Of a stretch of 64,000 bases of DNA, positions 1,961-47,343 are shown piece by piece. The translations under genes were made by a program, and so were the position numbers. The DNA comes from Candidatus Moraniibacteriota bacterium (GTDB taxonomy: Bacteria; Patescibacteriota; Minisyncoccia; Moranbacterales; UBA2206), in the NCBI GenBank assembly GCA_037137555.1, contig JBAXKA010000002.1, positions 3,133-67,132 on the forward strand. The letters run 5' to 3'. The notes below the pieces were generated by a model that saw only the letters and a program-made list of their open reading frames with translations, ran no database searches and was not told the origin of the DNA. Within the stretch, counting starts at the first letter, position 1; the number at the start of each line of letters is the position of its first letter.

Positions 1961-3088
1961 ATGAGTCTGCCACCCCAAGAACAATTTCACAAATTTATTA
2001 CGAATGCCAAAAATGTAATTATATTTATGCCTGATAATCCGGGTTTTGACGCTATCGGAAGTGCCTGGGCGTTAAACTTTTTTCTGGAAAATAATAATAT
2101 TCTTGCCACGATTGTTTCAATTAAGCCACTGGCTGAAAATAAATTCAATTTTCTTCCTCACCCAAAAAACATTACTACTGAAATCTCTGGTGCACGAGAA
2201 TTTGTTTTGTCTTTTGATACTAGTCGCAACAAAATTCTTGGCTTGCGTCAAGAAACAATTGGTACGGCTTTCAATGTTTATCTTACTCCAGAAAAAGGCT
2301 CGATTGATCCACGCGACTTTTCTTTTATTTTAGCCAAATTCAAATATGATTTAATTGTTGTTTTTGACAGTCCAGATTTAGAAAGCCTGGGAAATCTTTA
2401 TCTTAATAATTCTGACTTATTTTTTGAAGTGCCGGTAATTAATATTGATCATCATAGTAACAATGAAAATTTTGGTCAGATTAATTTGGTTGATATTACA
2501 GCTTCATCTTGTGCGGAAATTCTAAAATCAAGTTTAGAAAATATTTCTCCTTCCAGTTTTGATAAAAATATTGCCACTTGTCTTATGACGGGAATTATTG
2601 GTGCAACTGGAAATTTTCAAAAGAAAAACACCACACCAAAAGCTCTTTTAGCAGCAGCTGATCTTATGGATAAAGGCGCTGATCAACAAGGCATCGTTCG
2701 TTGGCTCTATAAAACACAGCCACTTGCTATATTAAAATTACTTGGGCGAGTTATGAGTAAGCTAAATTGGGAAGAAAAAACTAAATTAGCTTGGGCCAAT
2801 TTAACCTTAGAAGATTTTGTGCAAAGTCGAAATACACCAGAAAGCTTGCCAATAATTTTGGAAAAATTACAAGAAAATTATAGCGATGGTCAAATTTTTA
2901 TGCTCCTCTATAATGACACACCAGTTACCACATTGGCTTTTATCAGAATTAGTGATATTGAACTTTTACGAAAACTTGCAACACTTTTTAATGTCCCAAC
3001 TCATGCTGAATTTTTGAAAATTAAATTACCCGAGAGCGATTTATCCTTGGTAGCAAAAATCATTCAAGATAAAATTGAAAATATCTAA
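1961..3088 (+). CDS. DHH/DHHA1 family phosphoesterase (NrnA-like nanoRNase / pAp phosphatase)
   Basis: 'NIDHHSNN' DHH motif, N-terminal 'IIFMPDNPGFDAIGSAWAL', 375 aa. Confidence 0.7.
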   Translation: MSLPPQEQFHKFITNAKNVIIFMPDNPGFDAIGSAWALNFFLENNNILATIVSIKPLAENKFNFLPHPKNITTEISGAREFVLSFDTSRNKILGLRQETIGTAFNVYLTPEKGSIDPRDFSFILAKFKYDLIVVFDSPDLESLGNLYLNNSDLFFEVPVINIDHHSNNENFGQINLVDITASSCAEILKSSLENISPSSFDKNIATCLMTGIIGATGNFQKKNTTPKALLAAADLMDKGADQQGIVRWLYKTQPLAILKLLGRVMSKLNWEEKTKLAWANLTLEDFVQSRNTPESLPIILEKLQENYSDGQIFMLLYNDTPVTTLAFIRISDIELLRKLATLFNVPTHAEFLKIKLPESDLSLVAKIIQDKIENI

Positions 3089-3110
3089 ACACGAGAAGAA
3101 TTTTTAAAAA

Positions 3111-3148
3111 ACAAGCTTAAAAAAATTAGCTTGTTTTTTGTTTTTTGT
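3111..3148 (+). terminator. intrinsic terminator downstream of the DHH phosphoesterase gene
   Basis: Hairpin acaagct/agcttgt followed by the run ttttttgttttttgtttt. Confidence 0.6.
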
Positions 3149-3215: not shown

Positions 3216-6200
3216 ATGATAAAAATTACAAAGAAGGCCACTGGAACAGAAGAAGAAAAAAAAGCTATTTCCAATAAATTAGTTGCGAATGTGCAACATC
3301 ACTCAGAAGAAGAAGAGACATCTAAATTTGCTGACACGCTTGAATTGCCTTATATTGACACCAATATCGTGCCTATTTCTGTTGATAGCTTGAAATTATT
3401 AACCGAACAAGATGCACGAAAATTTAGCATAGCCACTATTCAAAGAAAGGGCAAACTCGTGACAGTTGTTGCGACTGATCCAACAAAAGAAGCTACAAAA
3501 GAATTTCTCAAAAATTTTTCTGAAAAGTTAGGAGTAAAAATAAAACTCTTTGTTATTTCTCACTACAACTTTGAAAAAGTTTTAGAAAAATATAAAAAGA
3601 TTATTTTTTCTGAAGTTCTTGATCAATTAAATTTAACTATTTCTGACAAAGATTTAAGTGCGTTTGAAGTGGCTCTTAAAAATTTAGTCACGCTCAAAGA
3701 AAGAGTCAAAGAAATGCCTATAACCGAGGTAATGAATATTATGATGGCCGGAGCATACACACTCGGAGCATCTGATGTGCATATTGAGCCGGGAGAAAAC
3801 GAATTCCGCTTGCGTTATCGTATTGACGGTGTTTTGCAAGATGTGGCTTTTTTTCCATTAAATATCCATAAAAGAATTGCCACCAGAATTAAAATGATGT
3901 CTGGCATGAAACTTAATCTAGCCGATATGGCCCAAGACGGAACATTTGAAGTTAATTTGGCGGACAAAAAAATTGCCATTCGTGCATCTTCTATTCCTGG
4001 CAGTTTTGGCGAATCAATTGTAATGCGACTTCTTGATCCTGATTCAATTAAAGTTAATATTGAACAGTTGGGCTTGCAAGGCCTTGCTTATGAAATAATT
4101 CAAAGACAAATTGAAGCCCCTAATGGCATGATTCTCACAACAGGACCAACTGGCAGTGGAAAAACAACAACACTTTACGCCATCATCAATAAATTAAATA
4201 CGCCGGACAAAAAAATTATTACGATTGAAGATCCGATTGAGTATCAACTAAAAGGCGTTTCTCAAACTCAAATCGAAAGATCGCGTGGTTATACTTTTGC
4301 TACTGGTCTGCGGGCAATTGTGCGACAAGATCCAGATATTATTTTGGTTGGTGAAATTCGTGATGATGAAACTGCTGACATTGCTATTAATTCTGCCCTC
4401 ACTGGTCATCTCGTGCTTTCCACCTTTCACACAAATAGTGCGATCGCTTCCATTCCTCGTCTCGTTGAAATGGGTGTTAAACCATCTTTTATTGCACCAG
4501 CCGTTAATGCCATTATTGGACAACGCTTAGTGCGAAAACTCTGTGACTGCAAAGAAGAATATATACCAGCCAAAGAAACCACCGACTCATTAAAAAAAGT
4601 ATTATCCATTATTTCTCCCCGAGCTAAAGTAGATATTCCTAAAAATATTGAAAAACTTTATCGACCAAAAGGCTGTCTCAAATGTGGCAATACCGGCTAT
4701 AAAGGTCGTATGGGAATTTTTGAAGTATTAACGCTCAGTCCCGAAACAGAAAAATTAATTCTTGATTTAGCTGGAGAAACAGAAATCACAATGGCCGTTC
4801 TGGAAGAAGGTATGGTGACAATGCTTCAAGATGGAATCCTAAAAGCTGTTACGGGCATCACTTCAATCGACGAAGTAAAAAAAGTGACCGGTCAAGGAGA
4901 ATTTTTAGAAAATATCTATGAAAAATTAATGTCTCAATTGTTGGGAAGTAGCTTGCCCATTAAAAAAGAATTTTATACTAAAACAGAAGCTTGCGTAAAT
5001 GATTTTTCCAAAATGCAAACACTTTTAACGGGAACAAAAATCACCGATACCATAAAAATTATTTTTTCCGCCGCTCAAATTCTTGGTGTTGGAGATATTC
5101 ATATTGAACCGGAAAAGGAAAGTGTTAAGATTCGTTTTCGTATTGATGGAATTTTGCAAACAGTCGCTTCACTTCCACTCACGGAATATACAACTTTTCT
5201 AGGACAAATTAAATTGCTCAGTGGTGTAAAAACAGAGGCGAGACAAGGCGTCATTGATAGTCGTTTTAGTATTAGTTTTGATGAAGAGTTAGTTGAATTA
5301 AAAGAAAAATCAGTTGACATTCGTGTTTCAATTATTCTTGGTGGTTTTGGTGAAACAGTTGTAATGCGACTACTCAGTAAATCTTCTGTGGAATTAAACT
5401 TGGACAAGCTGGGCATCAGAAAACAAAATCTGGAAAAAATTAAACGAGAAGTTTCAAAACCCAATGGTGTGGTTTTAAATACCGGACCAACTGGTAGTGG
5501 AAAAACGACAACGCTCTATGCTATTTTAAATTTAATTAAAAATCCAGAAATAAAAATCATCACCGTGGAAGATCCAATTGAATATCAAATGGAAGGAATT
5601 TTGCAAACTCCTGTTAGTGAAAAAGATGGTTATACTTTTTCCACAGCTCTTCGGGCTCTGCTTCGTCAAAATCCAGATATTATGATGATTGGTGAAATCC
5701 GCGATAATGAAACGGCGCTAATTGCTGTTCAAGCAGCGCTAACTGGTCATCTTGTGCTTTCTACTTTGCATACCAATAATGCTTCTGGCGCAGTTGCCAG
5801 AATGCTCAATATGGGCGTGAAACCGGAAGATATTGTCTCTGGTGTTAATGCTTTTATCGCACAACGACTTGTGCGCACTCTTTGTGATTGCAAAACAAAA
5901 ATTGCTCCCACTGAAGAAGAAAAACAAAAAATCGAAACAGTCCTAAAAACTATTAGTCCAAAAACACAAGTTGAAATTCCGCAATTAACCGAAATATATA
6001 AACCCAATGGCTGTGATAAATGCAATCACATTGGCTATAAGGGTCGCACAACAATTAGTGAAATATTTTTGCTCTCGCGTGAAATTCAAGAAGCAATTAT
6101 GCGTGGAGCTATTACTTCAGAACTTAATCAAAAAGCCATGGAAGAAGGCATGATCACAATGCCACAAGATGGAATTTTGAAAGTGTTGGAAGGTGAAACA

Positions 6201-6236
6201 ACATTAGAAGAGGTGGAGCGAGTAACCGAAATTTAG
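3216..6236 (+). CDS. tandem-duplicated GspE/PilB-family secretion ATPase (N1 domain + two complete N2-ATPase-Zn modules)
   Basis: Two full copies of Walker A 'TGPTGSGKTTTLYAI', Asp box 'EDPIEYQ', Walker B '(L/M)(V/I)GEIRD', His box 'TGHLVLST(F/L)HTN', and a tetracysteine motif (CDCK...C(L/D)KC..GYKGR). An N-terminal T2SSE_N-like region appears only once. Confidence 0.85.
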   Translation: MIKITKKATGTEEEKKAISNKLVANVQHHSEEEETSKFADTLELPYIDTNIVPISVDSLKLLTEQDARKFSIATIQRKGKLVTVVATDPTKEATKEFLKNFSEKLGVKIKLFVISHYNFEKVLEKYKKIIFSEVLDQLNLTISDKDLSAFEVALKNLVTLKERVKEMPITEVMNIMMAGAYTLGASDVHIEPGENEFRLRYRIDGVLQDVAFFPLNIHKRIATRIKMMSGMKLNLADMAQDGTFEVNLADKKIAIRASSIPGSFGESIVMRLLDPDSIKVNIEQLGLQGLAYEIIQRQIEAPNGMILTTGPTGSGKTTTLYAIINKLNTPDKKIITIEDPIEYQLKGVSQTQIERSRGYTFATGLRAIVRQDPDIILVGEIRDDETADIAINSALTGHLVLSTFHTNSAIASIPRLVEMGVKPSFIAPAVNAIIGQRLVRKLCDCKEEYIPAKETTDSLKKVLSIISPRAKVDIPKNIEKLYRPKGCLKCGNTGYKGRMGIFEVLTLSPETEKLILDLAGETEITMAVLEEGMVTMLQDGILKAVTGITSIDEVKKVTGQGEFLENIYEKLMSQLLGSSLPIKKEFYTKTEACVNDFSKMQTLLTGTKITDTIKIIFSAAQILGVGDIHIEPEKESVKIRFRIDGILQTVASLPLTEYTTFLGQIKLLSGVKTEARQGVIDSRFSISFDEELVELKEKSVDIRVSIILGGFGETVVMRLLSKSSVELNLDKLGIRKQNLEKIKREVSKPNGVVLNTGPTGSGKTTTLYAILNLIKNPEIKIITVEDPIEYQMEGILQTPVSEKDGYTFSTALRALLRQNPDIMMIGEIRDNETALIAVQAALTGHLVLSTLHTNNASGAVARMLNMGVKPEDIVSGVNAFIAQRLVRTLCDCKTKIAPTEEEKQKIETVLKTISPKTQVEIPQLTEIYKPNGCDKCNHIGYKGRTTISEIFLLSREIQEAIMRGAITSELNQKAMEEGMITMPQDGILKVLEGETTLEEVERVTEI

Positions 6237-6501
6237 TAATAATCTGCAGGCAAAACTCTCGAACTAGGAGCCCAAGAAAAGGAACTGTATCGAGGAATAA
6301 CTCAGCCAATTTGCTAAGAGCAAACTAACCATTTTACCCATGTCTTGAAAAAAGTTCCCCATATTGATGACAAAAGATAGAAGTCACCAATTGCCTGCAA
6401 TTTACTGCTAGCCACTGTTTTTTAATAAAAATAATAAAACACTGACTTGTCAATCTAGCATGTCCTTGGAGTTTTGTCAAATCAGGTATATACTGTTTTT
6501 A

Positions 6502-7500
6502 ATGATTACAAACTCCCACGAACAAATTGAAGACTTGAATCTAGACAATACTTTGCGTCCGCAAAGCTTTTTGGAATATGTTGGACAAGAGAAAGTTAAA
6601 AAAAATCTGGATATTCTTATTCAAGCTGCCAAAAAAAGACAAGAACAAATTGAACATGTTCTATTATATGGTCCGGCCGGATTAGGCAAAACAACGCTGG
6701 CTAATATTATCGCCAAAGAATTGGGCGTAAGCATTAAAACGACTTCTGGTCCAGCGATTGAAAGAGTTGGTGATTTTGGATCCATTCTCACAAATTTGCA
6801 AGACGGCGATATTCTTTTTATTGATGAAATTCATCGCTTAAATAAATCCATCGAGGAAGTGCTTTATCCGGCCATGGAAGATTTTAAATTAGATATTGTT
6901 ATTGGCAAAGGTCCATCAGCACGCACCATTCAATTGGATTTGCCAAAATTTACCCTGATTGGAGCAACCACAAAACTGGGATCACTTTCCAATCCACTGC
7001 GAAATCGTTTTGGTGCCATTCATCGTTTGGAATTTTATGAAACTGGTGAAATAGAAAGAATTTTGCGTCGTTCCGGAAAAATTTTAGCCGTGCCCGTTGA
7101 AGACACAGGACTTTCTGAAATTGCTAAATGTGCCAGATGCACACCTCGCGTTGCTAATCGTCTTTTGAAACGAGTGCGGGATTTTTCTCAAATAAAAAAT
7201 TACACCACAATTGATAGCGTCCGTGCCAGAGAAGCTTTGGAAATGATTGATGTTGATGAGTTGGGACTTGAACCGGCCGATAAACATATATTGCGCACGA
7301 TTATTGAAAAATTCGGTGGCGGTCCAGTGGGACTTTCCACTGTTGCCGCTGCTACTTCGGAAGAAATAAAAACCATCGAAGATGTTTATGAGCCTTATCT
7401 TTTGCAAATCGGTTTTCTCACTCGCACTCCACGCGGAAGAGTTGCCACTGAATCGGCTTATAAACATTTGGGCATTAAATTTCCAGACAAGGTGGTTTGA
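6502..7500 (+). CDS. ruvB: Holliday junction branch migration helicase RuvB
   Basis: Near full-length colinear match to E. coli RuvB ('[22 protein letters not shown]', 'LFIDEIHRL', 'RTPRGR'). The ORF is open from 6460, but the ATG at 6502 fits the RuvB N-terminus. Confidence 0.93.
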
Positions 7501-8438: not shown

Positions 8439-9038
8439 ATGAAAAATGAGATAAAAAACATTGAAAATGACTTAGAATTTGTAAGAAATATCTATTTTAA
8501 ACTTTTAGCTATTTTGCCAAGTTTTAACATTACTGATAGCAAGATATTGCCATATGGATTAAAGGCACACACAAGATCCGTGAGCTGGTTAGTTGAGCAA
8601 GTTATTACACAGCAAACAAAATATAATGCAAAAAAACTTGGCATTGATGATGTCAATTTTGATTTTCCTGACACTTCCTTGCATGATTGTGAAATAATTG
8701 TAGGTGGGAAAAGTTATTTTGTTAATATAAAAACCCACAATATAGTGGGGAAAGAAAATAAAAATGATATTTCTGCAGTAGAAAAACTTTATTTTCAATA
8801 TAGTGTCAATATGAATTACACGATAATTTACGCCTGCTTTGGTATTAAATTTGAAAATATAAATATAAGCTTCGTTAAGGATTATTTGGAAATTTTTTCA
8901 CCACAATTTTTGCCAATCTATATAAATCCAAGAAATGATAAAATTCAAGCAACTTACAGGCATGATCAAATCCATAGAACACGAGAAGAATTTTTAAGAA
9001 TGCTCCGAGAAAAATCAAAAAGTATTATTTTAAAATAA
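8439..9038 (+). CDS. hypothetical protein, candidate Type II restriction endonuclease
   Basis: 199-aa ORF co-oriented with the methyltransferase and ending 4 nt before it. It is even more AT-rich than the surrounding sequence. There is only a weak PD...(D/E)xK-like stretch ('FPDTSLHDCEIIVGGKSYFVNIK'). Confidence 0.4.
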   Translation: MKNEIKNIENDLEFVRNIYFKLLAILPSFNITDSKILPYGLKAHTRSVSWLVEQVITQQTKYNAKKLGIDDVNFDFPDTSLHDCEIIVGGKSYFVNIKTHNIVGKENKNDISAVEKLYFQYSVNMNYTIIYACFGIKFENINISFVKDYLEIFSPQFLPIYINPRNDKIQATYRHDQIHRTREEFLRMLREKSKSIILK

Positions 9039-9042
9039 AATT

Positions 9043-9876
9043 ATGAATAAAATTTTTAATGAAGATGTTTTGCTGGGAATAGATAAAATTAGTGATAATT
9101 CCATTGATTTGATATTGACCGATCCGCCATATTGTCTAGGAAAGGATTATGGCAATGACTCGGATCAGAAATCGTCAGAGGATTATTTAAATTGGACGTA
9201 TCAATGGATTGATGCGGTTTTGCCAAAGTTAAAAAAAACTGGCAGTTTTTACATTTTTTTAAGCTGGCAATATTCTCCAGAAATTTTTGTTTACCTAAAA
9301 AAGAAAATTAGAATGGCTAATGAAATCATCTGGGATAGGCGAGTTCCGAGCATGGGAGGCTCTACTAGAAAGTTTTCTTCCGTGCATGATAATATAGGAT
9401 TTTTTGTAAAAAGCAATGATTATTATTTTGACATTGATAGTATAAGAATTCCATATGATGCTGAAACTAAGAAAGCAAGAACGAGATCGATTTTTGTTGG
9501 CAAAAAATGGTTAGAGATTGGTTACAATCCAAAAGATTTATGGAGCACTTCTAGGATACATGCACAAGCACCAGAAAGAGAAAAACACCCAACACAAAAA
9601 CCACTAGAAATAATCGAACGCATGGTAAAAGCAAGTTGTCCTAAGAATGGCATCGTGCTAGATCCATTTATGGGGACAGGGACAACGGCTATTGCTTGCT
9701 TGGCAAATGACAGACAATATGTTGGATTTGAAATAAATAAGGATTATCATAAATTAATATTAAATAGAATTAAAAAGTATAATAGTTGTCCTACATTATT
9801 CAACCAACAAACTCAAGAGCTAATTAGTTTAGTTAAAAATGTTCAATGTCAACCACATCACTTATCACTAAACTAA
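9043..9876 (+). CDS. DNA methyltransferase, beta-class amino-MTase (N6-adenine or N4-cytosine)
   Basis: Motif IV 'LILTDPPYCLG' precedes motif I 'LDPFMGTGTTAIAC'. 'HPTQKPLEIIERMV' is a typical ParB-MTase/N6_N4_Mtase signature. Confidence 0.85.
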   Translation: MNKIFNEDVLLGIDKISDNSIDLILTDPPYCLGKDYGNDSDQKSSEDYLNWTYQWIDAVLPKLKKTGSFYIFLSWQYSPEIFVYLKKKIRMANEIIWDRRVPSMGGSTRKFSSVHDNIGFFVKSNDYYFDIDSIRIPYDAETKKARTRSIFVGKKWLEIGYNPKDLWSTSRIHAQAPEREKHPTQKPLEIIERMVKASCPKNGIVLDPFMGTGTTAIACLANDRQYVGFEINKDYHKLILNRIKKYNSCPTLFNQQTQELISLVKNVQCQPHHLSLN

Positions 9877-12770: not shown

Positions 12771-13487
12771 ATGTCTGGACACTCACATTGGGCGGGAATA
12801 AAACAACGAAAAGGAATTAACGATGCCAAGCGCGGTAAAATTTTTACTAAATTTGGAAAGTTAGTCACGATTGCGGCACGAGATGGTGGCGGAAAATTAG
12901 ATGCTAATTTTCAGTTGCGTATGGCGGTTGATCGTGCGCGCGAAATGAATATGCCCAAAGAAAATATTGAAAGAGCGATCAAGCGAGGAACGGGTGAAAT
13001 TAAAGGTGCAATGATTGAAGAAATATTATATGAAGCAGTTGGACCAGGTGAATTAATGTTGCTTATTTCTTGCACAACAGATAATAAAAATCGCACAGTG
13101 TCTGAAGTAAAAACTATTTTAACAAAAAATAACTCCAAGCTCGGCGAAAAAGGCAGTGCTATGTGGAATTTTGAACAAGTTGGCAATATCAGCCTTGCTC
13201 TTGAAAATAAAGATGTGACGGAATTGGAAATGCTCGCGATTGAAGCTGGTGCTAAAGATACAATGCGAGAAGATGATTTGCTAAATATAATCACAGAAGT
13301 AAAAGATTTTGCTCGTGTGCGGGAAAGTCTTGAAAAAGAAAAATTAAAAATAATTGATTCTGGTTTAATTTATTTGCCAAAAAATACTATTACGGTCGAT
13401 GAAAAAGCTCGTGAAAGCTTTGAAAATCTCATGGAACTTTTGGATGATCATGATGATGTCAGTGAAATTTATAATAATTTAGCATAA
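12771..13487 (+). CDS. yebC: YebC/PmpR family DNA-binding transcriptional regulator
   Basis: 'MSGHSHWAGIKQRKG' N-terminus and overall YebC architecture. Confidence 0.9.
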   Translation: MSGHSHWAGIKQRKGINDAKRGKIFTKFGKLVTIAARDGGGKLDANFQLRMAVDRAREMNMPKENIERAIKRGTGEIKGAMIEEILYEAVGPGELMLLISCTTDNKNRTVSEVKTILTKNNSKLGEKGSAMWNFEQVGNISLALENKDVTELEMLAIEAGAKDTMREDDLLNIITEVKDFARVRESLEKEKLKIIDSGLIYLPKNTITVDEKARESFENLMELLDDHDDVSEIYNNLA

Positions 13488-13489
13488 CC

Positions 13490-13984
13490 ATGAAAATTTT
13501 AGGCATAGATCCTGGCACAGCCACAACTGGCTGGGGAATTATTGAAATACAGGGAGGCAAGCTTTTGCCTTTGGCTTATGGTCATATCAGCACTTCAAAA
13601 GATAACAGCGACGATGAAAGAATTCTAGAAGTTTCGCTAGATTTAGAAAAAATAATTAAAGAACATAAACCGGAAGAAGCTGCCATTGAAAGTTTGTTTT
13701 TTTTTAAAAACCAAAAAACCGTTATTCAAGTTGCTCAATCGCGTGGAGCAATTCTCTTGACTTTAAAGCAAAATGATGTTAAGGTTTTTAGTTACACTCC
13801 ACTCCAAGTTAAGCAAGCACTCACGGGTTACGGCCGAGCAGAAAAAAAGCAGATGCAACAAATGATTAAAAATATTCTGCATCTGGGCTCTGTGCCAAAA
13901 CCAGATGATGTCGCTGATGCACTGGCTATTGCTGTGTGTCATGCCAATAGTCGTGCCATAATTAGTTTAAGAAAAAACGCATGA
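13490..13984 (+). CDS. ruvC: crossover junction endodeoxyribonuclease RuvC
   Basis: 'MKILGIDPGTATTGWGIIE' and C-terminal 'DDVADALAIAVCHA'. Confidence 0.92.
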   Translation: MKILGIDPGTATTGWGIIEIQGGKLLPLAYGHISTSKDNSDDERILEVSLDLEKIIKEHKPEEAAIESLFFFKNQKTVIQVAQSRGAILLTLKQNDVKVFSYTPLQVKQALTGYGRAEKKQMQQMIKNILHLGSVPKPDDVADALAIAVCHANSRAIISLRKNA

Positions 13985-21519: not shown

Positions 21520-21801
21520 TTACTTTAATTTAATATCCTCCACCACATCATCACCAACCTCTTGATTGATTTTTTTAATGATGCGTGTTTTGTTTGTCCA
21601 AAGCTCGGCTGACCAGATGGAATTTTCCGCTTTAATAAATAAAGTTTTGTGTGCAAAATACTCTGGATTAAATTTTTGCTTTCCAATTAAGCCAAATTCA
21701 TCACTAATTACTTTTTTAAAAACAAAAAAGACAGTTTTATCATCCAACTGTTGTATTTTTTTAATTTTTCGTTGCCCTAAGATATCACCAAGCGCTTTCA
21801 T
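21520..21801 (-). CDS. DUF721/DciA-like protein
   Basis: 93 aa immediately downstream of dnaN. 'HKTLFIKAENSIWSAELWTNKTRIIKKIN' resembles the DUF721 core. Confidence 0.5.
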   Translation of the reverse strand: MKALGDILGQRKIKKIQQLDDKTVFFVFKKVISDEFGLIGKQKFNPEYFAHKTLFIKAENSIWSAELWTNKTRIIKKINQEVGDDVVEDIKLK

Positions 21802-21810
21802 TTTTTTATT

Positions 21811-22971
21811 CTAGTTTTTTATAGGCATGATAATATAAGTAAAATCAATTAAGACAGCGCTAGTGCTTTCAGAAAATTCTCGAATCGCCACTGGCGATGA
21901 ATCACTATTGGCCAATAGGGCGATCTTATCTGTTGTCACAACATTAATTCCTTCTGTTAGATATTTCAAATTAAAAACAATCTCTTGTGACTCACCAAGA
22001 ACTTCAAATTTGATTTCTGTTGAGTTTTCCCCCACCTCAACGCTCCTAGTATCAATTAATATATTTTTCTTCTCTGCGTCAATTTTTAAAACTATTTCCT
22101 TGGATTTTTCACTCACAAAAACTCCTGCCATTTTTAAGGCGTTTTGAAGAACTCGCTTATCACCAATTATTGTTGTTTTATATGTTTGTGGCATTATGTG
22201 TTTATATTCTGGATATTTTCCATTAATCAAGCGAGAAACTATCTTCATTCCACCGAGCTCAAAGAAAATCTGACCATCCTCGATAAATATTTCAATAATA
22301 GTGTCGGAAATATTATTAGAAATAATTCGATTTAATTCTGTTAATGTGTTTATTGGTATAATAATATTTTTAGTTTTCTCTTTTAGTTCGTTATATTTTT
22401 CTCGATTAACCTCTTTTTCACTTATTTTTAAAATATATTCCGATAAACGAAAGCCATCTGTGGCCGCAAAAAATAATTCACTCTCACCAAAAACAATATT
22501 CATACCAGTCAATTCTTGCCGTGCCTCATTGTGCGCAATAGCAATAAGTAGTTTAGAAAAAATATCTTTTAATTTATTGATTTCAATTTTAAATATAAAT
22601 TCTGTGCTTTTTTGTGGAATTAAAGGAAAATCCTCAGCAGAAAAACTTTTTATCTTAGCTTTAGTTTGCCCGTTTGTTATTTTTAAGTTTTGATCTACTG
22701 TCTCTATGTCCATATTTTCTTCTTCAGAGAGATTTGTAGAAAAATTACTTAGTAATTTCGCAGGAACCGTGATCACGCCTTCTTGTTCAACTTTTGCTCC
22801 GATTTTAATTTCAATTCCAATTTCTAAATTAGTCGCTGCTATTTTCAAATAACCTGCATGCGCTTCTAGTAGAATATTATTTAAAATCGGTAATGTATTT
22901 TGTTTAGATACAATTCGTTCAGAATTGATAATAGCTTTTTTAAAATTCTCTTGTGTGCAGATTAGTTTCAT
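21811..22971 (-). CDS. dnaN: DNA polymerase III beta sliding clamp
   Basis: 'MKLICTQENFKKAI...LPILNNILLEA', three-domain length, downstream of dnaA. Confidence 0.9.
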   Translation of the reverse strand: MKLICTQENFKKAIINSERIVSKQNTLPILNNILLEAHAGYLKIAATNLEIGIEIKIGAKVEQEGVITVPAKLLSNFSTNLSEEENMDIETVDQNLKITNGQTKAKIKSFSAEDFPLIPQKSTEFIFKIEINKLKDIFSKLLIAIAHNEARQELTGMNIVFGESELFFAATDGFRLSEYILKISEKEVNREKYNELKEKTKNIIIPINTLTELNRIISNNISDTIIEIFIEDGQIFFELGGMKIVSRLINGKYPEYKHIMPQTYKTTIIGDKRVLQNALKMAGVFVSEKSKEIVLKIDAEKKNILIDTRSVEVGENSTEIKFEVLGESQEIVFNLKYLTEGINVVTTDKIALLANSDSSPVAIREFSESTSAVLIDFTYIIMPIKN

Positions 22972-23234
22972 AGGAGTTATATTATATTTTATTAATTAAA
23001 TTAACTTATTATTGTTATTATAAATGGGATTAATGTGGATAACTAGTTTTTAAGGCTTTAATGTTGAGAAATAATGCAATATAAACTGTGGATAATTATT
23101 ATTTTTTAACTAAGATAAGTTGGGTGATTTTTTAGCTAAATAATTAAGTGTAATTATTATACTAAAATAACAAACAGTCTGTGATAGTTAATTGAGGGTG
23201 TTTTTAGTGGGTATATAAACAAGTTATTAACAGT
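22972..23234. promoter_or_regulatory. probable chromosomal replication origin (oriC) in the dnaA-dnaN intergenic region
   Basis: Two perfect DnaA boxes TGTGGATAA (= TTATCCACA on the minus strand) at 23034..23042 and 23087..23095. The flanking sequence is an AT-rich unwinding-like tract, next to dnaA/dnaN and rpmH-rnpA-yidC-jag. Confidence 0.7.
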
Positions 23235-24614
23235 TTATTCTATTTTATACAGATCTTCACAGATTTGATTGATTTCTTCTGAGAGCGTTTCGTCGGATAA
23301 ACGATTTTTGGAAATTTTATCAAAAGCGTGAATAGCGGTTGAATGATCTCTTCCGCCTAATTTTTCTCCAATGCCGGGAAAAGAGAATTGTAATTCACTA
23401 CGCATAAGATACATAGCAATTTGCCTGGGCTTAACAACCTCTTTTTTTCGATTTTTTAAAATTAAATCATCGGGATTTATATCATAAAAAGAAGAAACCG
23501 CTTTTAGGACATGTTTATATGTAACACCCTTTTTTTTGCCACTGGAAATTAATTCGGATAGTTGGCCTATAGTAAACTCAAGTGTAATTTCTTTTTTAGC
23601 TAATTGAGCGGAAACAATAATCCGATTTAATGCCCCTTCTAGCTCCCGAATATTATTTTTAATATTAGTGGCAATAAAAACTAACGCTTCTTGGCTAATT
23701 TCTATACTTTCATCGATAACTTTTTTTTGCAAAATGGCTAGTCTTGTTTCGAGATCGGGCTTAGAAACATCAGCTATCATACCACCCTCAAAACGAGAAC
23801 GCAATCTTTCTTCCAGGATGCGAATGGCTTTTGGTGGGCGATCACTACTAAGAACAATTTGTTTATTTAATTGATAGAGATGGTTGAAAATATGAAAAAA
23901 TTCCTCTTGTGTTTTTTCTTTATCGGAAATAAATTGAATATCGTCAATAATTAAGATATCAATTTTTTGATAATATTCTTTAAATTCGTTTATTTTATGG
24001 TTTTGTAGGGCGTCAATTAGGTTGGCGGTAAATCTTTCTGAAGTGATATATTTTACTCTAAAGTTTGGATCTTTTCGTAATATTTCATTGCCAATAGATT
24101 GAATTAAATGCGTTTTTCCCAAACCTACGCCACCATAAATAAATAAAGGGTTATAAATTTTCCCCAGATTTTGAGAAACAGCGATACAAGCGGCATTAGC
24201 TAGTTCATTATTTCCACCAACGATTAAATTTTCAAAAGTATATTTAGGATTAAGATTGTTTTCAAGGTTTATTGCAAATACTTTTTTTTCAATTTTTTTT
24301 TGCGTATAATTTTGAGGAGCAATAATAGCATCGAGCATGTTTTCTTTTCTGATTATTGAGCCCTCTTTTGGAGCGGCAATTACACATGAAACAGTTTTTA
24401 TGTCCGGTTGAATATTGCGAAGGGCTTTTAGAATATAGGAATTGTATTTATTCTCTAGCCATTCTTTGGCAAAACCAGTAGGAACACTAAGAATAATAAT
24501 TCCATCGGTATTGGAAATAATCTTTGTGCTTCGAAACCAGGTTGCAAAATTTGCTCTGGAAATATAAAGCTCTATTTCATTGAGGGCTGTTTGCCAGAGT
24601 TCTTCATTGAGCAT
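23235..24614 (-). CDS. dnaA: chromosomal replication initiator DnaA
   Basis: AAA+ 'LFIYGGVGLGKTHL' and 'IDDIQF', C-terminal domain IV, classic synteny. Confidence 0.95.
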   Translation of the reverse strand: MLNEELWQTALNEIELYISRANFATWFRSTKIISNTDGIIILSVPTGFAKEWLENKYNSYILKALRNIQPDIKTVSCVIAAPKEGSIIRKENMLDAIIAPQNYTQKKIEKKVFAINLENNLNPKYTFENLIVGGNNELANAACIAVSQNLGKIYNPLFIYGGVGLGKTHLIQSIGNEILRKDPNFRVKYITSERFTANLIDALQNHKINEFKEYYQKIDILIIDDIQFISDKEKTQEEFFHIFNHLYQLNKQIVLSSDRPPKAIRILEERLRSRFEGGMIADVSKPDLETRLAILQKKVIDESIEISQEALVFIATNIKNNIRELEGALNRIIVSAQLAKKEITLEFTIGQLSELISSGKKKGVTYKHVLKAVSSFYDINPDDLILKNRKKEVVKPRQIAMYLMRSELQFSFPGIGEKLGGRDHSTAIHAFDKISKNRLSDETLSEEINQICEDLYKIE

Positions 24615-24859
24615 TTTTTTGGATAAAAAGTTTAATAAAAGCTATTTTAAAGATTAAAATAAATATAGCACGGAAGAAAAATAATTGATAGCGGTAAAAG
24701 GTGAATAAACTGTTAGTAAGTCTAAGTGGTAAGTTAAAGTTAGTATAAGAAAGTTAAAAAAGCAAATATTTTCTTGTGATTGGCTTTTTGATTGACTTAT
24801 TAAAGAATAATTGGTAAGCTTTCAATTAGTTAGTTTTAAATATTTAACTCAAGAAATAA

Positions 24860-24997
24860 ATGAGCGTAACATATAAACCCAAAAGTATAAAGAGAAAAAG
24901 GAGTCATGGCTTTATTGAAAGAAATAGTACTGCTTCTGGCCGAAATGTTTTAAAAGCAAGAAGAAGAAAAGGTCGTGCTAAACTGACAACAGTTTAA
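24860..24997 (+). CDS. rpmH: 50S ribosomal protein L34
   Basis: 45 aa '[45 protein letters not shown]', close to the L34 consensus. It was not in the ORF track because it is under 60 aa. Confidence 0.9.
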
Positions 24998-25021
24998 TTT
25001 TTTAATTTTTAAAATCAGGCA

Positions 25022-25369
25022 ATGCTACCAAAAAAGCATCGAATTAGAAAAAACGCTGATTTTGAATTGATTTGTCGCTATGGAAAGACTATTTCTTGCG
25101 ACAAGCTGATTTTAAAAATTAAAAAGAATAATCTAGCCGTAACTCGACTAGGAATATCAGTTGGATTAAAATTTTCCTCAAAAGCGGTTGCTAGAAATAG
25201 GATTAGACGGCAGGTGCGGGCGTTTTTTGAAAAAAATTTTAAAAAAATACAAATTTCCTGGGATATTATAGTAATCGTGCAAAAAGGGGCTGATAATGAT
25301 GTGAAAATGCTGGCTGAGCTGGAAAATAGTTTAATCAAAAATGGCCTAATTAATAACGCATTAAAATAA
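25022..25369 (+). CDS. rnpA: ribonuclease P protein component
   Basis: Basic 115-aa protein immediately after rpmH, with an 'RLGISVGLKFSSKAVARNRIRRQVR' RnpA-like motif. Confidence 0.85.
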   Translation: MLPKKHRIRKNADFELICRYGKTISCDKLILKIKKNNLAVTRLGISVGLKFSSKAVARNRIRRQVRAFFEKNFKKIQISWDIIVIVQKGADNDVKMLAELENSLIKNGLINNALK

Positions 25370-33350: not shown

Positions 33351-34298
33351 TTAATTATTTTGGCATTTTGTGGTGCTGACATGAATATGATTATATGATA
33401 CTGCTTCATCTTTCCAATATCCAGCCCCAGAATTTTTAGCGGCGGTAATGATGTTGTCAGCGGTCAGTCCTGTTGCAGTAGAAACATCAATTGCTTCAGA
33501 TTTTCCACCAACAGTCCCACCATAATGGCAAGAACTTTTTTTATGATGACAACACTCCGTGCTTGAATCATTAGTGCATTGTTTCCAAGTTGGGTTGTTT
33601 CTGTAACAGTCTACCCCACCACCATTATTATCAGAAACTGAATTGATCATCATTTTATCTCCAAGTAGATTCTTCATTTTTAACATTAATTCTTGCAATT
33701 CAGGAGAGGCATCGTTGCATTGAGCCTTAATGCTAGTTGTTTGAAATTTGAAATCTTCACACTTGAAAGTTGTTGTTGTTGGCGTTGTTGTGGTTGGTAA
33801 TACTCCAGTGGAAGAGCTTGTTGTGGTGCAAGAGAAAGTATGCCAATCTGTTTTTTCAATGCCAAGATCTGTTTTTGCTGAAAATAATGTGATAATAATT
33901 GTGTTAACAATAAGCCAAGCACCCAACATTAAAGCGAAGCCAATCAAAACAGCCCCAACAATGTCTTTGGCTTGTTTGGTGAGTGTTGGGTTACCGGAAG
34001 AAACAATATAAATTATACCTGCAATGGAGATTGCAGTAATAGAAAGAGGAATTAATAAAGTATTCATTGCCCAATCGAGGATGCTCTGAATACCAACAAT
34101 TAAATGACAAAGTGTGCAGGGATCGGTAGTAGTAATTCCACAAGAAACAATACCAGCACTTGCAATTCTTGGCAGAGCAAAGAGAAAAATAAAAATACTA
34201 AAAAATAAAAAGACAAATTTATTGAGGCTAATTTTTTTAAACATAATATTTTTTTTAGGTTTTTTAACTATTTTGGAAAAGTTTTTCCGTTGGGACAA
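33351..34298 (-). CDS. pilin-like (TrbC/VirB2-type helical hairpin) protein fused to a Thr-rich linker and a Cys-rich LAS/M15-like peptidase-like domain
   Basis: Signal/TM, then 'AISIAGIIYIVSSGNPTLTKQAKDIVGAVLIGFALMLGAWLIV', paralogous to the hairpin in 34732..35622. The C-terminus has 'SCHYGG...SEAIDV' and 'NHIHVS' (H...D, HxH). Confidence 0.5.
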   Translation of the reverse strand: MSQRKNFSKIVKKPKKNIMFKKISLNKFVFLFFSIFIFLFALPRIASAGIVSCGITTTDPCTLCHLIVGIQSILDWAMNTLLIPLSITAISIAGIIYIVSSGNPTLTKQAKDIVGAVLIGFALMLGAWLIVNTIIITLFSAKTDLGIEKTDWHTFSCTTTSSSTGVLPTTTTPTTTTFKCEDFKFQTTSIKAQCNDASPELQELMLKMKNLLGDKMMINSVSDNNGGGVDCYRNNPTWKQCTNDSSTECCHHKKSSCHYGGTVGGKSEAIDVSTATGLTADNIITAAKNSGAGYWKDEAVSYNHIHVSTTKCQNN

Positions 34299-34708
34299 AA
34301 ACTGAGACGATAATTTATTCCGGAGGCATTTTCATTCACATCAAATGGCACACCCAGAGAAACTTTTAATTTACAGGCATCTGCTTGGCTTATATTTAAG
34401 GTGGTTAATAAATCTTTTTCTGCCATGTCTCTGGCTAATTGAATATCAGTATTAAGTATAGCAATAATAAATCCCTGATCTTGCGGATAGTAATCAATGG
34501 AGTAATTAGCATTTTCTTTAAAATTGACACCACTCAATGAAAGCGGTTTTTTATTTGGAAGCGTGGCGGGATTGATAATAGAAACTTTTCCTGTTGGTGT
34601 TTTGATGGTTAGCTGGTTGCTATTTTTTGAAAAAATAAAATAAAAAATTAAAATTAATAATAATCCGCCAAACGAGATAAACAAAATTTTAGCTGTTTTT
34701 GTGTGCAT
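34268..34708 (-). CDS. small exported hypothetical protein
   Basis: N-terminal TM/signal, 146 aa, inside the island. Confidence 0.45.
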   Translation of the reverse strand: MHTKTAKILFISFGGLLLILIFYFIFSKNSNQLTIKTPTGKVSIINPATLPNKKPLSLSGVNFKENANYSIDYYPQDQGFIIAILNTDIQLARDMAEKDLLTTLNISQADACKLKVSLGVPFDVNENASGINYRLSFCPNGKTFPK

Positions 34709-34731
34709 ATTGTTTTTTTAAAAAAAAATGA

Positions 34732-35622
34732 TTATTTGGGAAATCCGCACTTACTATTTGCTCCCCATGGCCCCCATTTTGCTCCATTATTAGAAAGCTT
34801 ACAGGCTGTTTGAATATTGCAAGCAGCGGTTGTGGCAGCGGTTACGCAACTTGCATAATTTGATTTTTGAGTACAATTATGATTAGCATTCTTACCGCCA
34901 GTATACATTGGTGCTGCGGCAGAAGTGGCACAGGTTGTTGTTGGACAGGAACTGCCACTAAGATTATGAGCAGAAAGATTTATTTGAAATAAACCAAGAG
35001 AAACAGGAAAATTATCAGGTTGACATTTGTCTCCACTTTGCTTGCTTTCTTTTCCAGAGCTTTCTCCCATACAAATCGCCGAAGCCATTGCAGCATTGTC
35101 ACCAAAGCAAGTTTTTCTAAGATTTTCAATAGAGCATGGTCCGGAAGCGGCTGGTTCGCATTTTCCTGTTCCGCTAGTGCTGCCACTGCCACTCCCGCTC
35201 CCACTACTTCCACCGGTGCTTCCACCACTACTGCTTTGTGGCAACGAAATACCTACAATATTAACCAATTCAGGATTGATAGTATAAAGAAGCACATACG
35301 AAGTGAGTGCAAGGATTAAGCCAGCAATAGCATCAAAAATAATTCCTTTAGCTTTTCCTGTGGCACTGGTATTTCCGGCACTGGTAATATACATAAAAGC
35401 ACCAACAGAAATCATCAACATCGCCGAGATGCCAACTGTCCACAAACCAAATTTATAAATTGTTAAAATATATAACTCATAGGAATCCGGCCGACCAAAT
35501 CCAGGAATTTCTTCCATTGGGGAATACTTATAAGCATCCACTGCTAATACTAAAAGAGGACTAAAAAGCAACACAAAGAAAAGTGCGATGGTTGCGATTT
35601 TTTGTTTTAGTTTAAAATTCAT
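34732..35622 (-). CDS. pilin-like (TrbC/VirB2-type helical hairpin) protein fused to a Gly/Ser linker and a Cys-rich lysozyme-like/lytic-transglycosylase-like domain
   Basis: 'MISVGAFMYITSAGNTSATGKAKGIIFDAIAGLILALTSYVLLY' hairpin. The C-terminus has 'MGESSG....VSLGLFQIN', resembling the SLT ES...GLMQI motifs. Confidence 0.5.
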   Translation of the reverse strand: MNFKLKQKIATIALFFVLLFSPLLVLAVDAYKYSPMEEIPGFGRPDSYELYILTIYKFGLWTVGISAMLMISVGAFMYITSAGNTSATGKAKGIIFDAIAGLILALTSYVLLYTINPELVNIVGISLPQSSSGGSTGGSSGSGSGSGSTSGTGKCEPAASGPCSIENLRKTCFGDNAAMASAICMGESSGKESKQSGDKCQPDNFPVSLGLFQINLSAHNLSGSSCPTTTCATSAAAPMYTGGKNANHNCTQKSNYASCVTAATTAACNIQTACKLSNNGAKWGPWGANSKCGFPK

Positions 35623-38581: not shown

Positions 38582-39249
38582 CGCGTAAGATAAATAATAT
38601 AACTATCCAAAATTATTATAGCAAAAATACTCATAAAATACGAATAGAAAAATGATTTTGTTTTGTAGGCGAGAAATCCGGCTGTGACGGAAAGCAAAAT
38701 GAAGGGAGCGGATTGCCAAGAAAAAGCATTTGTGAGAAAAAGTGTAGCAAGAAATAAGCTTGTTTGAGCGGAAATTGCCAAAGAAGCTATTTTTTTTTGA
38801 AAAAGTGAAAGAATAAAACCTTGAAAAAAATAACTAAAAATAAAAATACTTAAATTGACAATAAATAATTCATAAACTAAAAATAACCAGAAATTGTTTT
38901 TGATATAATTTGGCAAAACATAAACAGTATTGAAATCTGTATAATTAAGCATTAAATAAAAAAGCAAAAGAGTGAAGAAAAAAGTGCCTATTCCCCAGAT
39001 CAAGCCAATTGATTTATTTTTTAGATTCCAGCCAAAATCAGCCAGCTTTTTTTGGAGAATGATTTTTGTGTAAGCCACTGGCAGAAGAATAAGAAAAAAT
39101 AAATTAGCCGTTATTTTTTGGGCGGAATTTTGGGTGGGAAAAACAAGACTAAAAAAAAGGCAAAGGGCAATCACGCCAAGACTAACCAAAAATTCTCGGT
39201 CAAGCCAAGAAAGTTTTTGTTTTTTTTGTGGGTAGATTGGTTGATACAT
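38578..39249 (-). CDS. polytopic membrane protein, hypothetical
   Basis: About 6 TM helices, inside the island. Confidence 0.45.
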   Translation of the reverse strand: MYQPIYPQKKQKLSWLDREFLVSLGVIALCLFFSLVFPTQNSAQKITANLFFLILLPVAYTKIILQKKLADFGWNLKNKSIGLIWGIGTFFFTLLLFYLMLNYTDFNTVYVLPNYIKNNFWLFLVYELFIVNLSIFIFSYFFQGFILSLFQKKIASLAISAQTSLFLATLFLTNAFSWQSAPFILLSVTAGFLAYKTKSFFYSYFMSIFAIIILDSYIIYLTR

Positions 39250-39258
39250 GTGGTTTTT

Positions 39259-39795
39259 TTAATTTTCTTCTTCTTGCTCCTCGGCTTGTTCTGATTGGGT
39301 TTCTTTTCTTTCTTGTAAAATAAAAACATAAATCAAAAAAGTTGTAACGGTTTCCAGTGGCAAGAAATTCAAAATAGGAATCATCTCAAGCAGGTTGCCA
39401 AGAAAAAGGGTGATGAGTTTTTTTTTCCCAAAAAATTTTTTCACTCCCGAAACGAGCATTGCCATAATGGTCATAATGAATAGAAAAGGCGTCAAGAGTG
39501 TTCCAATAAAACCAGCATCAAAAATATCTTTAAGTCCGGACAATATAATAGTCAACAGAAAAAATATATCGATAACTTGAATAAAGCTGATCAGAGAGAC
39601 TGCTGACGAAACATCTTTAGCTATTTTTTTGGCATTTTTGGCCATTGACTTCAAACTTTTTTTGGGTTTATTGTCTTCATCAGCGGTTTTGTTCTGATCT
39701 TGTTTCTCTGCGTCTTTTTGTTCTGGTTGTTCGGCTTGTGGCGTAGATCGTTCTTGTTCTAGATTTTTTTTATGGTCGTCTTCTTCTTGAGACAT
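39259..39795 (-). CDS. membrane protein with acidic/lysine-rich N-terminal tail, hypothetical
   Basis: An N-terminal charged low-complexity region followed by 3 TM helices. Confidence 0.45.
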   Translation of the reverse strand: MSQEEDDHKKNLEQERSTPQAEQPEQKDAEKQDQNKTADEDNKPKKSLKSMAKNAKKIAKDVSSAVSLISFIQVIDIFFLLTIILSGLKDIFDAGFIGTLLTPFLFIMTIMAMLVSGVKKFFGKKKLITLFLGNLLEMIPILNFLPLETVTTFLIYVFILQERKETQSEQAEEQEEEN

Positions 39796-39806
39796 AAGGT
39801 TTAATT

Positions 39807-41657: not shown

Positions 41658-41682
41658 ATTTTTAAGCTTATTTTTTTTAAAT

Positions 41683-42369: not shown

Positions 42370-42373
42370 AGTT

Positions 42374-42769
42374 TTATTTTAGTCTTGTGTCTAATAATTT
42401 GGAAACATCAGCGACTCGTTGTGAATCAAATCGCTTTTTTTCAATTACAGGTATTGAAACTTGTTTGACGGCATCTCGTTGAATTTTTTCTGGTGTGCGA
42501 TGCCAAAGATATCTTTTTGGTCGAGTGGCAAACATAACAGATGAAATAATAAATTTAATCAGTGGTTGATTGTATGGTCGATAAAAAGCCAGTGAGCCAA
42601 AAATTAAACCAACAATGATAGCGGAAATAACAAAAGCGGATTGATCAAAAAGTCCATAGCAGAATAATAAAATAACGGCTCCGGCTGCGAGCCAGCCGAG
42701 TTGTTTGGCGGTGAGTGGTCCGACAATTTTATCTTCAATATCAATAAATTGGGGAACGCTGAAGATCAT
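42374..42769 (-). CDS. PrgI/VirB3-like small membrane protein
   Basis: 'IVGPLTAKQLGWLAAGAV' followed by two TM helices, positioned immediately upstream of VirB4 as in Gram-positive T4SS. Confidence 0.6.
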   Translation of the reverse strand: MIFSVPQFIDIEDKIVGPLTAKQLGWLAAGAVILLFCYGLFDQSAFVISAIIVGLIFGSLAFYRPYNQPLIKFIISSVMFATRPKRYLWHRTPEKIQRDAVKQVSIPVIEKKRFDSQRVADVSKLLDTRLK

Positions 42770-42793
42770 AAGCTTTATTTAAAAAATATTTTT

Positions 42794-44008: not shown

Positions 44009-44028
44009 TGTAGATGTGAAAAAAATAA

Positions 44029-46299: not shown

Positions 46300-46301
46300 A
46301 A

Positions 46302-47327: not shown

Positions 47328-47343
47328 GAAATTTTGTGTTTTG

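Follow-up and report, generated by a model that had tools for sequence, protein, structure and literature searches.

In PilB, the assembly motor of type IV pili, an N1 domain (N1D) is followed by an N2 domain (N2D) and a C-terminal ATPase domain (CTD) with a tetracysteine zinc site, and GspE/EpsE belongs to the same clade and carries the same motifs. The tetracysteine motif is characteristic of the PilB/GspE clade and absent from the PilT/PilU clade, and an inter-chain arginine (R455 in the PilB of Geobacter metallireducens, PilBGm) is likewise specific to PilB/GspE (PMC5424180). Here, we analysed a stretch of 64,000 nucleotides (below, the window) from an uncultivated Candidatus Moraniibacteriota bacterium, a member of the candidate phyla radiation (CPR; GenBank assembly GCA_037137555.1, contig JBAXKA010000002.1, positions 3,133 to 67,132 of the forward strand), in which one plus-strand gene (positions 3216–6236 of the window, stop codon included) encodes a tandem double PilB/GspE-type ATPase, hereafter the double PilB. 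The protein has the domain order and the zinc site of PilB, together with all of its named nucleotide-binding, catalytic, arginine-finger, His-box, pore-loop-1 and inter-chain residues. It differs from PilB in that two N2D-CTD units share one chain and a single, weakly matched N1D, in that no PilC or pilin gene adjoins it, and in that its second module has fixed substitutions where single PilBs are at least 85% conserved.

Comparison with described systems

Among solved structures, the best matches of the double PilB were the PilBs of G. metallireducens (5TSG/5TSH) and Myxococcus xanthus (3JC8) and PilF from Thermus. GspE/EpsE is represented by structures from Vibrio cholerae (4KSR/4KSS/1P9R) and by 4PHT, the latter being the top PDB match for module 2 alone (E 7e-88). 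The NCBIfam models for GspE, PilB and related proteins each matched two stretches along the chain, and the equivalog models for PilB (TIGR02538, 875.7 against a cutoff of 675.65) and GspE (TIGR02533, 885.2 against 630.25) both scored above cutoff and did not tell the two apart, these whole-protein scores being sums inflated by the presence of two modules. By its sequence features, the double PilB is a member of the already known PilB/GspE family. As CPR bacteria are not known to have an outer membrane or a secretin (PMC6744442), a classical type II secretion system is unlikely.

The canonical PilBs of CPR bacteria (loci L094 and L105–L150, and the single PilB of locus L088) belong to the same family and in some Parcubacteria share the wider surroundings of the double PilB, with LTD, bPH_2, RuvB and RuvC genes. 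Unlike the double PilB, they have a single module, a strong MshEN domain, the motifs RLPQDGR and QDPD, and a pilC gene that overlaps or abuts their own. The N1D of the double PilB lacks what we take to be the N-terminal helical cyclic di-GMP-binding motif, which the canonical PilB of L088 has. Linked ring ATPases are otherwise known from the two-ring AAA+ proteins p97 and NSF, from tandem KaiC and from single-chain ClpX constructs. In these, as in the double PilB, joined modules allow non-equivalent sites and module-specific mutagenesis, but they come from other superfamilies of ATPases, and in most of them the modules form two stacked rings and do not alternate within one. A precedent in the Patescibacteria, both for more than one PilB per genome and for recombination genes beside pilus genes, is found in TM7x (Saccharibacteria), where one pilus locus includes recAX; its PilBs are, however, ordinary, each encoded beside its own pilC, pilM, pilN and pilO, and no fused ATPase was reported (PMC12206443). 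The same logic as proposed below for the double PilB is seen in GspF/PilC, in which an in-chain tandem duplication is modelled to give a ring of three chains and six domains (PMC10790770), although GspF/PilC is the presumed partner and not the motor, and its 3:3 pairing with the double PilB would be a matter of inference.

Domain architecture of the double PilB

The open reading frame (ORF) starts with ATG, contains no internal stops and encodes 1006 residues. Pfam placed two T2SSE domains (PF00437, E 8.6e-228) and one MshEN domain (PF05157, E 2.3e-5) on the protein, the latter barely over the Pfam cutoff (24.7 vs 23.1 bits). This MshEN match defines a single N1D at aa 42–126 (3339–3593), and no N1D was found by Pfam ahead of the second module. 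Module 1 comprises an N2D at approximately aa 166–273 (3711–4034), its boundaries being carried over from the PilBGm N2D (181–288) via a residue map, with the arginine fingers R256 and R271, and a CTD at approximately aa 281–555 (4056–4880), delimited by motifs and the same map, with the Walker A box GPTGSGKT at aa 310–317 (4143–4166). An inter-module linker predicted to be helical (approximately aa 556–608, 4881–5039) leads to module 2, consisting of an N2D at approximately aa 609–720 (5040–5375), with the arginine fingers R703 and R718 and a 7-aa insertion, and a CTD at approximately aa 728–1006 (5397–6233), with an identical Walker A box at aa 757–764 (5484–5507). The zinc cysteines lie in the motifs CDCK (aa 443–446) and CLKC (aa 487–490) in module 1 and CDCK (aa 890–893) and CDKC (aa 933–936) in module 2. 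The original prediction, made from the sequence alone, had described exactly this layout of one N1D followed by two complete N2D-ATPase-tetracysteine modules in one polypeptide, with the same zinc motifs and with Walker A boxes at about 4141 and 5485; Pfam and the motifs agree with it, the boxes being located within 2 nt of these positions.

The two modules are approximately 45–49% identical, and a pairwise BLASTP alignment of the halves of the protein spans 439 residues with 45% identity (E 3e-138). As the aligned block begins at around aa 130, the duplicated unit took in the helical linker ahead of the N2D as well. The inter-module linker is homologous to the helices connecting N1D and N2D (aa ~125–165), with aa 130–186 aligning with aa 567–626 in BLASTP, and in the AlphaFold2 (AF2) model its secondary structure follows the helix-strand-helix order seen in aa 116–166. 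The AF2 monomer model as a whole (predicted local distance difference test score 76.8, predicted template modelling score, pTM, 0.42) has two equivalent folds and a helical linker. With the N2D-CTD unit and its preceding linker duplicated in tandem, one chain thus contains one N1D and two complete ATPase modules.

Conservation of the fusion

A protein identical to the double PilB (P0001 in our numbering of protein clusters) is present in NCBI, JGI and ENA as a 'GspE/PulE family protein [Candidatus Moraniibacteriota bacterium]'. When the NCBI, JGI, ENA and Logan assemblies were searched, at least 120 protein clusters were found to match over the full length, with 66–100% identity and full coverage, and the best 120 clusters were all 1004–1055 aa long, with one exception, the 1460-aa protein P0015. 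A further 13 clusters among the 50%-identity representatives, 978–1018 aa long and 38–51% identical, have two Walker A boxes each, and beyond these the matches turn into ordinary PilBs of approximately 550 aa. Furthermore, a scan of GTDB species representatives returned 135 relatives, and all 80 loci kept carry the double PilB at 51–90% identity, mostly at full length and in a few cases clipped by contig ends. Nearly all of these loci are titled Moranbacteria, Moraniibacteriota, Parcubacteria or Patescibacteria, and one deep cluster of double PilBs is labelled Paceibacterota. The fusion is thus real and lineage-wide in Moranbacteria-type CPR bacteria, and a comparison of fused and single PilBs in related genomes, which had been proposed together with the original prediction, found in addition single-module proteins at the same locus.

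Some loci (L043, L047, L048, L057, L059–L061, L077 and L082) are titled 'uncultured Bdellovibrionales' or 'Candidatus Bathyarchaeia archaeon' despite a Moranbacteria-type gene and neighbours; these titles probably reflect mislabelled taxonomy or contaminated bins of metagenome-assembled genomes.

Full-text literature searches returned no description of a tandem or fused PilB or GspE. What is new here is the conserved covalent tandem with its triple-module relative, together with the fixed signature of module 2 and the paralogue lineage linked to RuvB, both described below.

Active-site residues and asymmetry of the two modules

To compare the modules with a characterized motor, residues 171–564 of PilBGm were rebuilt from the PDB alignment with a 20-residue tag offset applied, and the resulting map reproduces all residues discussed by McCallum et al. 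2017 (R257, R271, R286, T327, E357, E395, D398, E400, T411, H413, H420 and R455). The catalytic and inter-subunit residues are referred to as named there (PMC5424180). The arginine fingers R271 and R286 of PilBGm correspond to R256 and R271 in module 1 and R703 and R718 in module 2, and the Mg-coordinating Asp-box glutamate E357 to E342 and E789, both glutamates of the Asp box being present in each module (E338/E342 and E785/E789). The catalytic glutamate E395 in the atypical Walker B motif is found as E380 and E827, the His-box residues T411, H413 and H420 as T396, H398 and H405 and as T843, H845 and H852, the pore-loop-1 residues D398 and E400 as D383 and E385 and as D830 and E832, and the inter-chain arginine R455 as R440 and R887. 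The zinc cysteines are C443, C445, C487 and C490 in module 1 and C890, C892, C933 and C936 in module 2. Across 119 family members and the deeper representatives, all of these positions, the eight cysteines included, show little or no variation; the Walker A lysine, Asp-box glutamate and catalytic glutamate are invariant in both modules across the family, and both arginine fingers were present in each module in 100% of the sequences examined. The catalytic glutamate, Walker B and arginine fingers, for which a pairwise alignment of the halves had been suggested as a check, are thus intact in both halves.

Selection was estimated as the ratio of nonsynonymous to synonymous substitution rates (dN/dS, omega). 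Against relatives at 78–90% identity, dN was 0.03–0.12 in both modules, dS being saturated (>1 in nearly all comparisons), and for the closest relatives a dN of 0.03–0.06 with dS above 1 gave an omega of approximately 0.02–0.05, equal for modules 1 and 2. The corresponding values were approximately 0.1–0.2 for the N1D and 0.05–0.24 for the linker, with the N1D and linkers evolving at three to five times the rate of the ATPase modules. Purifying selection is strong on both modules, which are, judging from their residues, apparently catalytically competent. Since the PilB-clade markers are present in both, the PilT motif AIRNLIRE was not found in the double PilB, and the named residues are intact, the protein appears to consist of two PilB-type units, and neither of a PilB and a PilT nor of an active and a dead module. 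A PilB-PilT fusion was rejected for the same markers and also because the modules are each other's closest relatives; PilT models match just part of either module, and the N1D and cysteine motifs also set the double PilB apart from PilT/PilU, which have neither and are approximately 350 aa long.

The modules are nevertheless distinguishable when positions at least 85% conserved in 126 single PilBs are taken as reference. Module 1 retains essentially all of these positions, and module 2 departs from them by a signature in which S186 of module 1 is replaced by G626, R224 by Q664, Q240-D-G242 by I680-D-S682, P261 by L708, and D372 by N819, the last at the first aspartate of 'QDPD'. Four of these five positions are located within the N2D of module 2 (N2D-2). 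The arginine equivalent to R224 is present in all first modules and 117 of the 126 single PilBs, and has been lost from all second and third modules in the main family; a role of this residue (R238 in PilBGm) is not described in the literature examined. The original prediction had pointed to other substitutions in module 2, in the strings 'EDPIEYQM' and 'IMMIGEIRDNE'. These strings are present, but the changes are conservative and spare the catalytic residues, all of which are retained, so that they were rejected as signs of decay; the actual signature lies elsewhere, mostly in the N2D. Rejected as a family-wide asymmetry was also T243 of module 1, which takes the place of the 'QDGR' arginine (PilBGm R257), as it is confined to the Moranbacteria subclade and the position is merely approximately 79% arginine in single PilBs.

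Proposed ring and its coupling to PilC

The 'packing units' of the PilB ring each consist of an N2D seated on the CTD of the next chain; nucleotide is gripped between units, and opposite sites work together in pairs (PMC5424180). With the ring-interface residues kept in both modules of the double PilB, and with module numbers of two and three that both divide six, a six-module ring would be formed by three chains of the double PilB, or by two chains of the triple-module protein P0015. Such a trimer of dimers, already proposed in the original prediction, is a reasonable inference, and the series of one, two and three modules fits it. Module types would alternate around the ring of the double PilB, each opposite pair thereby comprising one module 1 and one module 2, and in the ring of the triple-module protein opposite positions would be occupied by identical modules. 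Just three N1D anchors would be present per ring. We consider it reasonably probable that the double PilB is a functional assembly motor of the PilB/GspE clade, arisen by duplication of N2D-CTD and linker, whose three-chain, six-module ring drives a PilC-type platform encoded elsewhere and thereby the polymerization of type IV pilins. Links to pili are found in locus L077, where a type IV pilin gene (N_methyl, 13024–13521) lies between the double PilB and RuvB genes, and in canonical PilB-PilC-pilin operons of other Parcubacteria, which are flanked by the same LTD, bPH_2, RuvB and RuvC genes.

A more specific version of this proposal concerns the partner. In a model supported by cross-linking, a GspF/PulF trimer presents six cytoplasmic domains, Cyto1 and Cyto2 in alternation, each of which contacts one ATPase N2D (PMC10790770). 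The diverged N2Ds of the double PilB could each be specialized for one of the two PilC cytoplasmic domains, in which case three motor chains would pair with a PilC trimer in a 3:3 complex, and an alternation of N2D-1 and N2D-2 matched chain for chain to Cyto1 and Cyto2 would explain why the signature is concentrated in N2D-2. That alternating N2Ds dock one-to-one on Cyto1 and Cyto2, with two types of site firing in fixed opposite pairs, is offered tentatively, and we regard it as possible but somewhat doubtful.

Several observations weigh against the double PilB as a pilus assembly motor of this kind. PilC, PilM/N/O and PilD were not found within 10 kb of 93 double-PilB loci (1.67 Mb), a hidden Markov model (HMM) built from 53 CPR PilCs being used for PilC, and apart from the pilin of L077 no prepilin motif turned up there either. 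In the 64-kb window, no PilC was found by this HMM and no prepilin motif was detected, and PilM, PilN, PilO, PilD and other type IV pilus Pfam families were absent from the 40 window ORFs scanned out of approximately 60. The gene had been called an orphan, with no pilC, pilM/N/O or pilin gene adjoining, and the HMM, motif and Pfam scans bear this out for its immediate surroundings, but the locus itself is old and conserved. Related CPR bacteria moreover have a separate canonical PilB with an adjacent PilC, so the double PilB may not be the main pilus assembly motor. The AF2 monomer model, with its pTM of 0.42, gives no inter-module geometry, and the neighbour-joining tree of modules is too crude to give the direction in which module number has changed, by gain or by loss.

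Genomic context and a second PilB lineage

The double PilB gene is flanked by genes for a DHH-family phosphoesterase (1961–3088, plus strand; Pfam DHH) and RuvB (6460–7500, plus strand; Pfam RuvB_N, lid and C domains), the neighbours named at the outset being the ones that Pfam identified, and RuvB is followed in the window by bPH_2, LTD/PKD, YebC and RuvC. A DHH gene was found directly upstream in 57 of the 70 species-representative loci where this could be evaluated, and RuvB no more than 2.5 kb downstream in 57 of 68. The gene order TsaE/DHH-PilB-RuvB-small transmembrane protein-bPH_2-LTD/PKD-YebC-RuvC-7TM_transglut-ATP-grasp recurs in relatives at 86% and 66% identity, and the core of the locus persists at 44% and 38%. 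The number of modules encoded at the DHH/RuvB locus varies: P0138 (565 aa, DHH-PilB-RuvB) has one, P0153 has one followed by a low-complexity tail, others have two, and in one case (P0015) there are three.

Canonical PilBs form a different lineage. In two rare variants of the locus, L088 (13052–14836) and L091 (5145–5957), a canonical single PilB follows right after the double PilB, so that two genes together encode three ATPase modules. In the single PilB of L088, the MshEN domain is strong and both canonical motifs, RLPQDGR and QDPD, are present, and an overlapping pilC gene follows in its relatives; in 33 of the 55 metagenomic loci found with it, PilC comes directly after, usually with one or more pilins behind. 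Several canonical PilB-PilC operons from Parcubacteria have LTD upstream and bPH_2, RuvB and RuvC at a distance of 7–10 kb. In their ATPase part, the operon PilBs are 56–64% identical to one another and only 43–51% identical to module 1 of the window protein, to which the RuvB-linked single PilB is 54% identical. By sequence, the double PilB thus belongs to a paralogue lineage apart from the PilB of the PilB-PilC-pilin operons. Fragments of canonical PilB labelled Moranbacteria also exist, one of them following a two-component system. The assembly DAONNR01, which has a canonical PilB fragment labelled Moranbacteria, was not among the double-PilB loci returned, and a search with the PilC fragment of L094 retrieved only PilCs of Paceibacteria and Kaiserbacteria.

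This separation is what gives weight to the best-surviving alternative, in which the DHH-PilB-RuvB paralogue is a second, specialized motor that works beside the canonical operon PilB and powers a different filament or task; variants of this idea would be a competence pilus for DNA uptake tied to recombination genes, or a substitute for a PilT-type retraction motor. The identity values above, the canonical single PilBs directly after the double PilB in L088 and L091 and the Moranbacteria-labelled fragments all speak for it, as does the linkage to RuvB, YebC and RuvC, which is conserved to 44% identity. A ComM/YifB-type Mg-chelatase-like AAA+ protein is also encoded in the window (51969–53492, minus strand), 45 kb from the double PilB. 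ComM homologues are linked to competence in other bacteria. TM7x moreover has two PilB paralogues for two pili (PMC12206443). On the other hand, both paralogues have been shown in one genome only for L088 and L091, housekeeping gene order is often conserved in small genomes without implying shared function, no ComEC or ComEA was found adjoining the gene, and both modules bear PilB-type and not PilT-type markers. We regard a second specialized motor, with which a three-chain ring would still be compatible, as an unlikely explanation that nonetheless deserves serious consideration.

Downstream of the DHH gene, a terminator-like hairpin with a 13-bp stem and a U-run (3105–3140, plus strand; -12.8 kcal/mol, z = -2.88) was left unflagged by a consensus terminator scan because its loop is 10 nt, and it suggests that the PilB gene may have its own transcription start. 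A promoter scan of the window performed no better than on shuffled sequence, and Rfam gave no matches on the window. The spacer between the PilB and ruvB genes (6237–6459, 224 bp) contains two hairpins with T-runs on the minus strand only (6331–6303 and 6278–6256), and in the same spacer of relatives a small minus-strand ORF is called (L001, 13316–13585). Between the bPH_2 and LTD/PKD genes, an ORF of 199 aa without a Pfam match and an N6_N4 DNA methylase (8439–9876, plus strand) probably represent an inserted restriction-modification module; relatives have a NUDIX gene or nothing at this position.

Alternative arrangements of the modules

Tandem P-loop ATPase modules of other families (p97, NSF and ClpB) stack as two rings. 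Following this precedent, the double PilB could form two stacked hexameric rings of six chains and twelve modules, and a helical linker of approximately 50 residues would permit either geometry. A stacked PilT-like form is, however, not described in the literature examined, where the closed PilT-like ring is built by placing the N2D of one module on the CTD of the next (PMC5424180). The triple-module homologue P0015 would need three stacked rings, and both modules retain their inter-chain residues (R440/R887 and T396/T843), which fits a place for each of them in ordinary ring interfaces. Stacked rings are thus improbable, and a single ring of three chains is the arrangement we prefer.

Still less probable is a regulatory role for one module, which would then be a degenerate pseudo-ATPase serving only as a scaffold or gate for the active one. 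Module 2 does deviate at nearly invariant sites (R224 to Q, E or K, QDG to IDS, P to L and D372 to N), module 1 of this subclade is without the arginine equivalent to PilBGm R257 (T243 instead), and an unrelated double-module protein, P0143, has truly lost the Walker A box of its first module. Set against this, the Walker A lysine, Asp-box glutamate, catalytic glutamate, both arginine fingers and both His-box histidines are invariant in each module throughout the family, and dN/dS is equally low in the two, which leaves a pseudo-module very unlikely.

That a sequencing or assembly error joined two adjacent pilB genes, so that a missed stop or a frameshift accounts for the long frame, as had been raised together with the original prediction, is ruled out for practical purposes. 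Nothing was found in its favour, and the same unbroken frame recurs in at least 120 clusters and in 80 species representatives, which stem from many independent projects, assemblies and assemblers; the inter-module linker is itself conserved.

Evolution of module number

When 176 modules were placed in a neighbour-joining tree, those of the main family fell into two sister clades, one of first and one of second modules, which points to one old duplication. The triple-module protein P0015 (1460 aa; L007, 10001–14383, at a DHH-linked locus), known from one cluster on one contig, has an N1D and three complete modules with Walker A boxes at residues 314, 761 and 1211. Its modules 2 and 3 both fall into the module-2 clade and both carry the module-2 signature. 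P0131 and P0127, the modules of which are 74% and 57% identical, respectively, hold the module-1 state at R224 and look like younger duplications or products of gene conversion. Some single-module proteins were nested within the module-1 clade, so losses of modules are also conceivable from the tree.

'Single' CPR PilBs of 700–860 aa were considered as decayed doubles and rejected, as their tails consist of low-complexity sequence or helical repeats with no ATPase remnants. In P0164, P0179, P0193, P0197, P0200, P0219, P0238 and P0261, C-terminal tails of 140–300 aa contain a helical motif twice ('LVDYLDMLEQEQ..P.IG.A.KI..I...I'), for which we know of no Pfam match. P0143 (L010, 10001–13144) was likewise rejected as a relative: the 1047-aa protein combines a PilC-type T2SSF domain with two T2SSE modules, the first without Walker A, and is encoded on a contig unlike CPR that bears sulfatases and an extracytoplasmic function sigma factor. 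Platform and motor domains were fused independently in this protein, which is unrelated to the double PilB.

Other features of the window

A Gram-positive-type, type IV secretion-like cluster was found on the minus strand at 33354–48456. It encodes a TraG/VirB4-like P-loop ATPase (39810–41657), PrgI (42377–42769), an SLT_3 lysozyme with a weak T4SS_pilin match (34735–35622), a second protein with a weak T4SS_pilin match (33354–34298), a TSP3-repeat protein (47347–48456) and two large proteins without a Pfam match, of 989 aa (35615–38581) and 756 aa (44032–46299), all on the minus strand. At 21811–25369, dnaN and dnaA on the minus strand and rnpA and yidC on the plus strand are separated by a gap of 407 bp (24615–25021). 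The replication origin probably lies in this region, and DciA is encoded at 21523–21801.

Implications

Motors of the PilB/GspE type have been studied as rings of six identical chains, and the division of work among their six sites has been argued from crystal and cryo-EM snapshots, in terms of C2 versus C3 symmetry, the firing of opposite pairs and coupling to a dimeric or trimeric PilC. A natural, lineage-wide fusion supplies what needed engineering in other ring ATPases, namely two intact and distinguishable modules, so that mutations could be confined to one class of sites and the native mass would directly reveal the stoichiometry. If the proposed ring is correct, the single-, double- and triple-module orthologues at one locus would be natural 'single-chain' constructs from which the number of non-equivalent sites needed by a rotary motor of the PilB type could be learned, and the modules of a type IV pilus motor could for the first time be mutagenized separately. 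For the organisms themselves, a second PilB lineage is maintained in a major CPR group, away from pilus operons and beside Holliday-junction genes, a finding of relevance to the use of pili by these episymbionts in attachment or DNA uptake.

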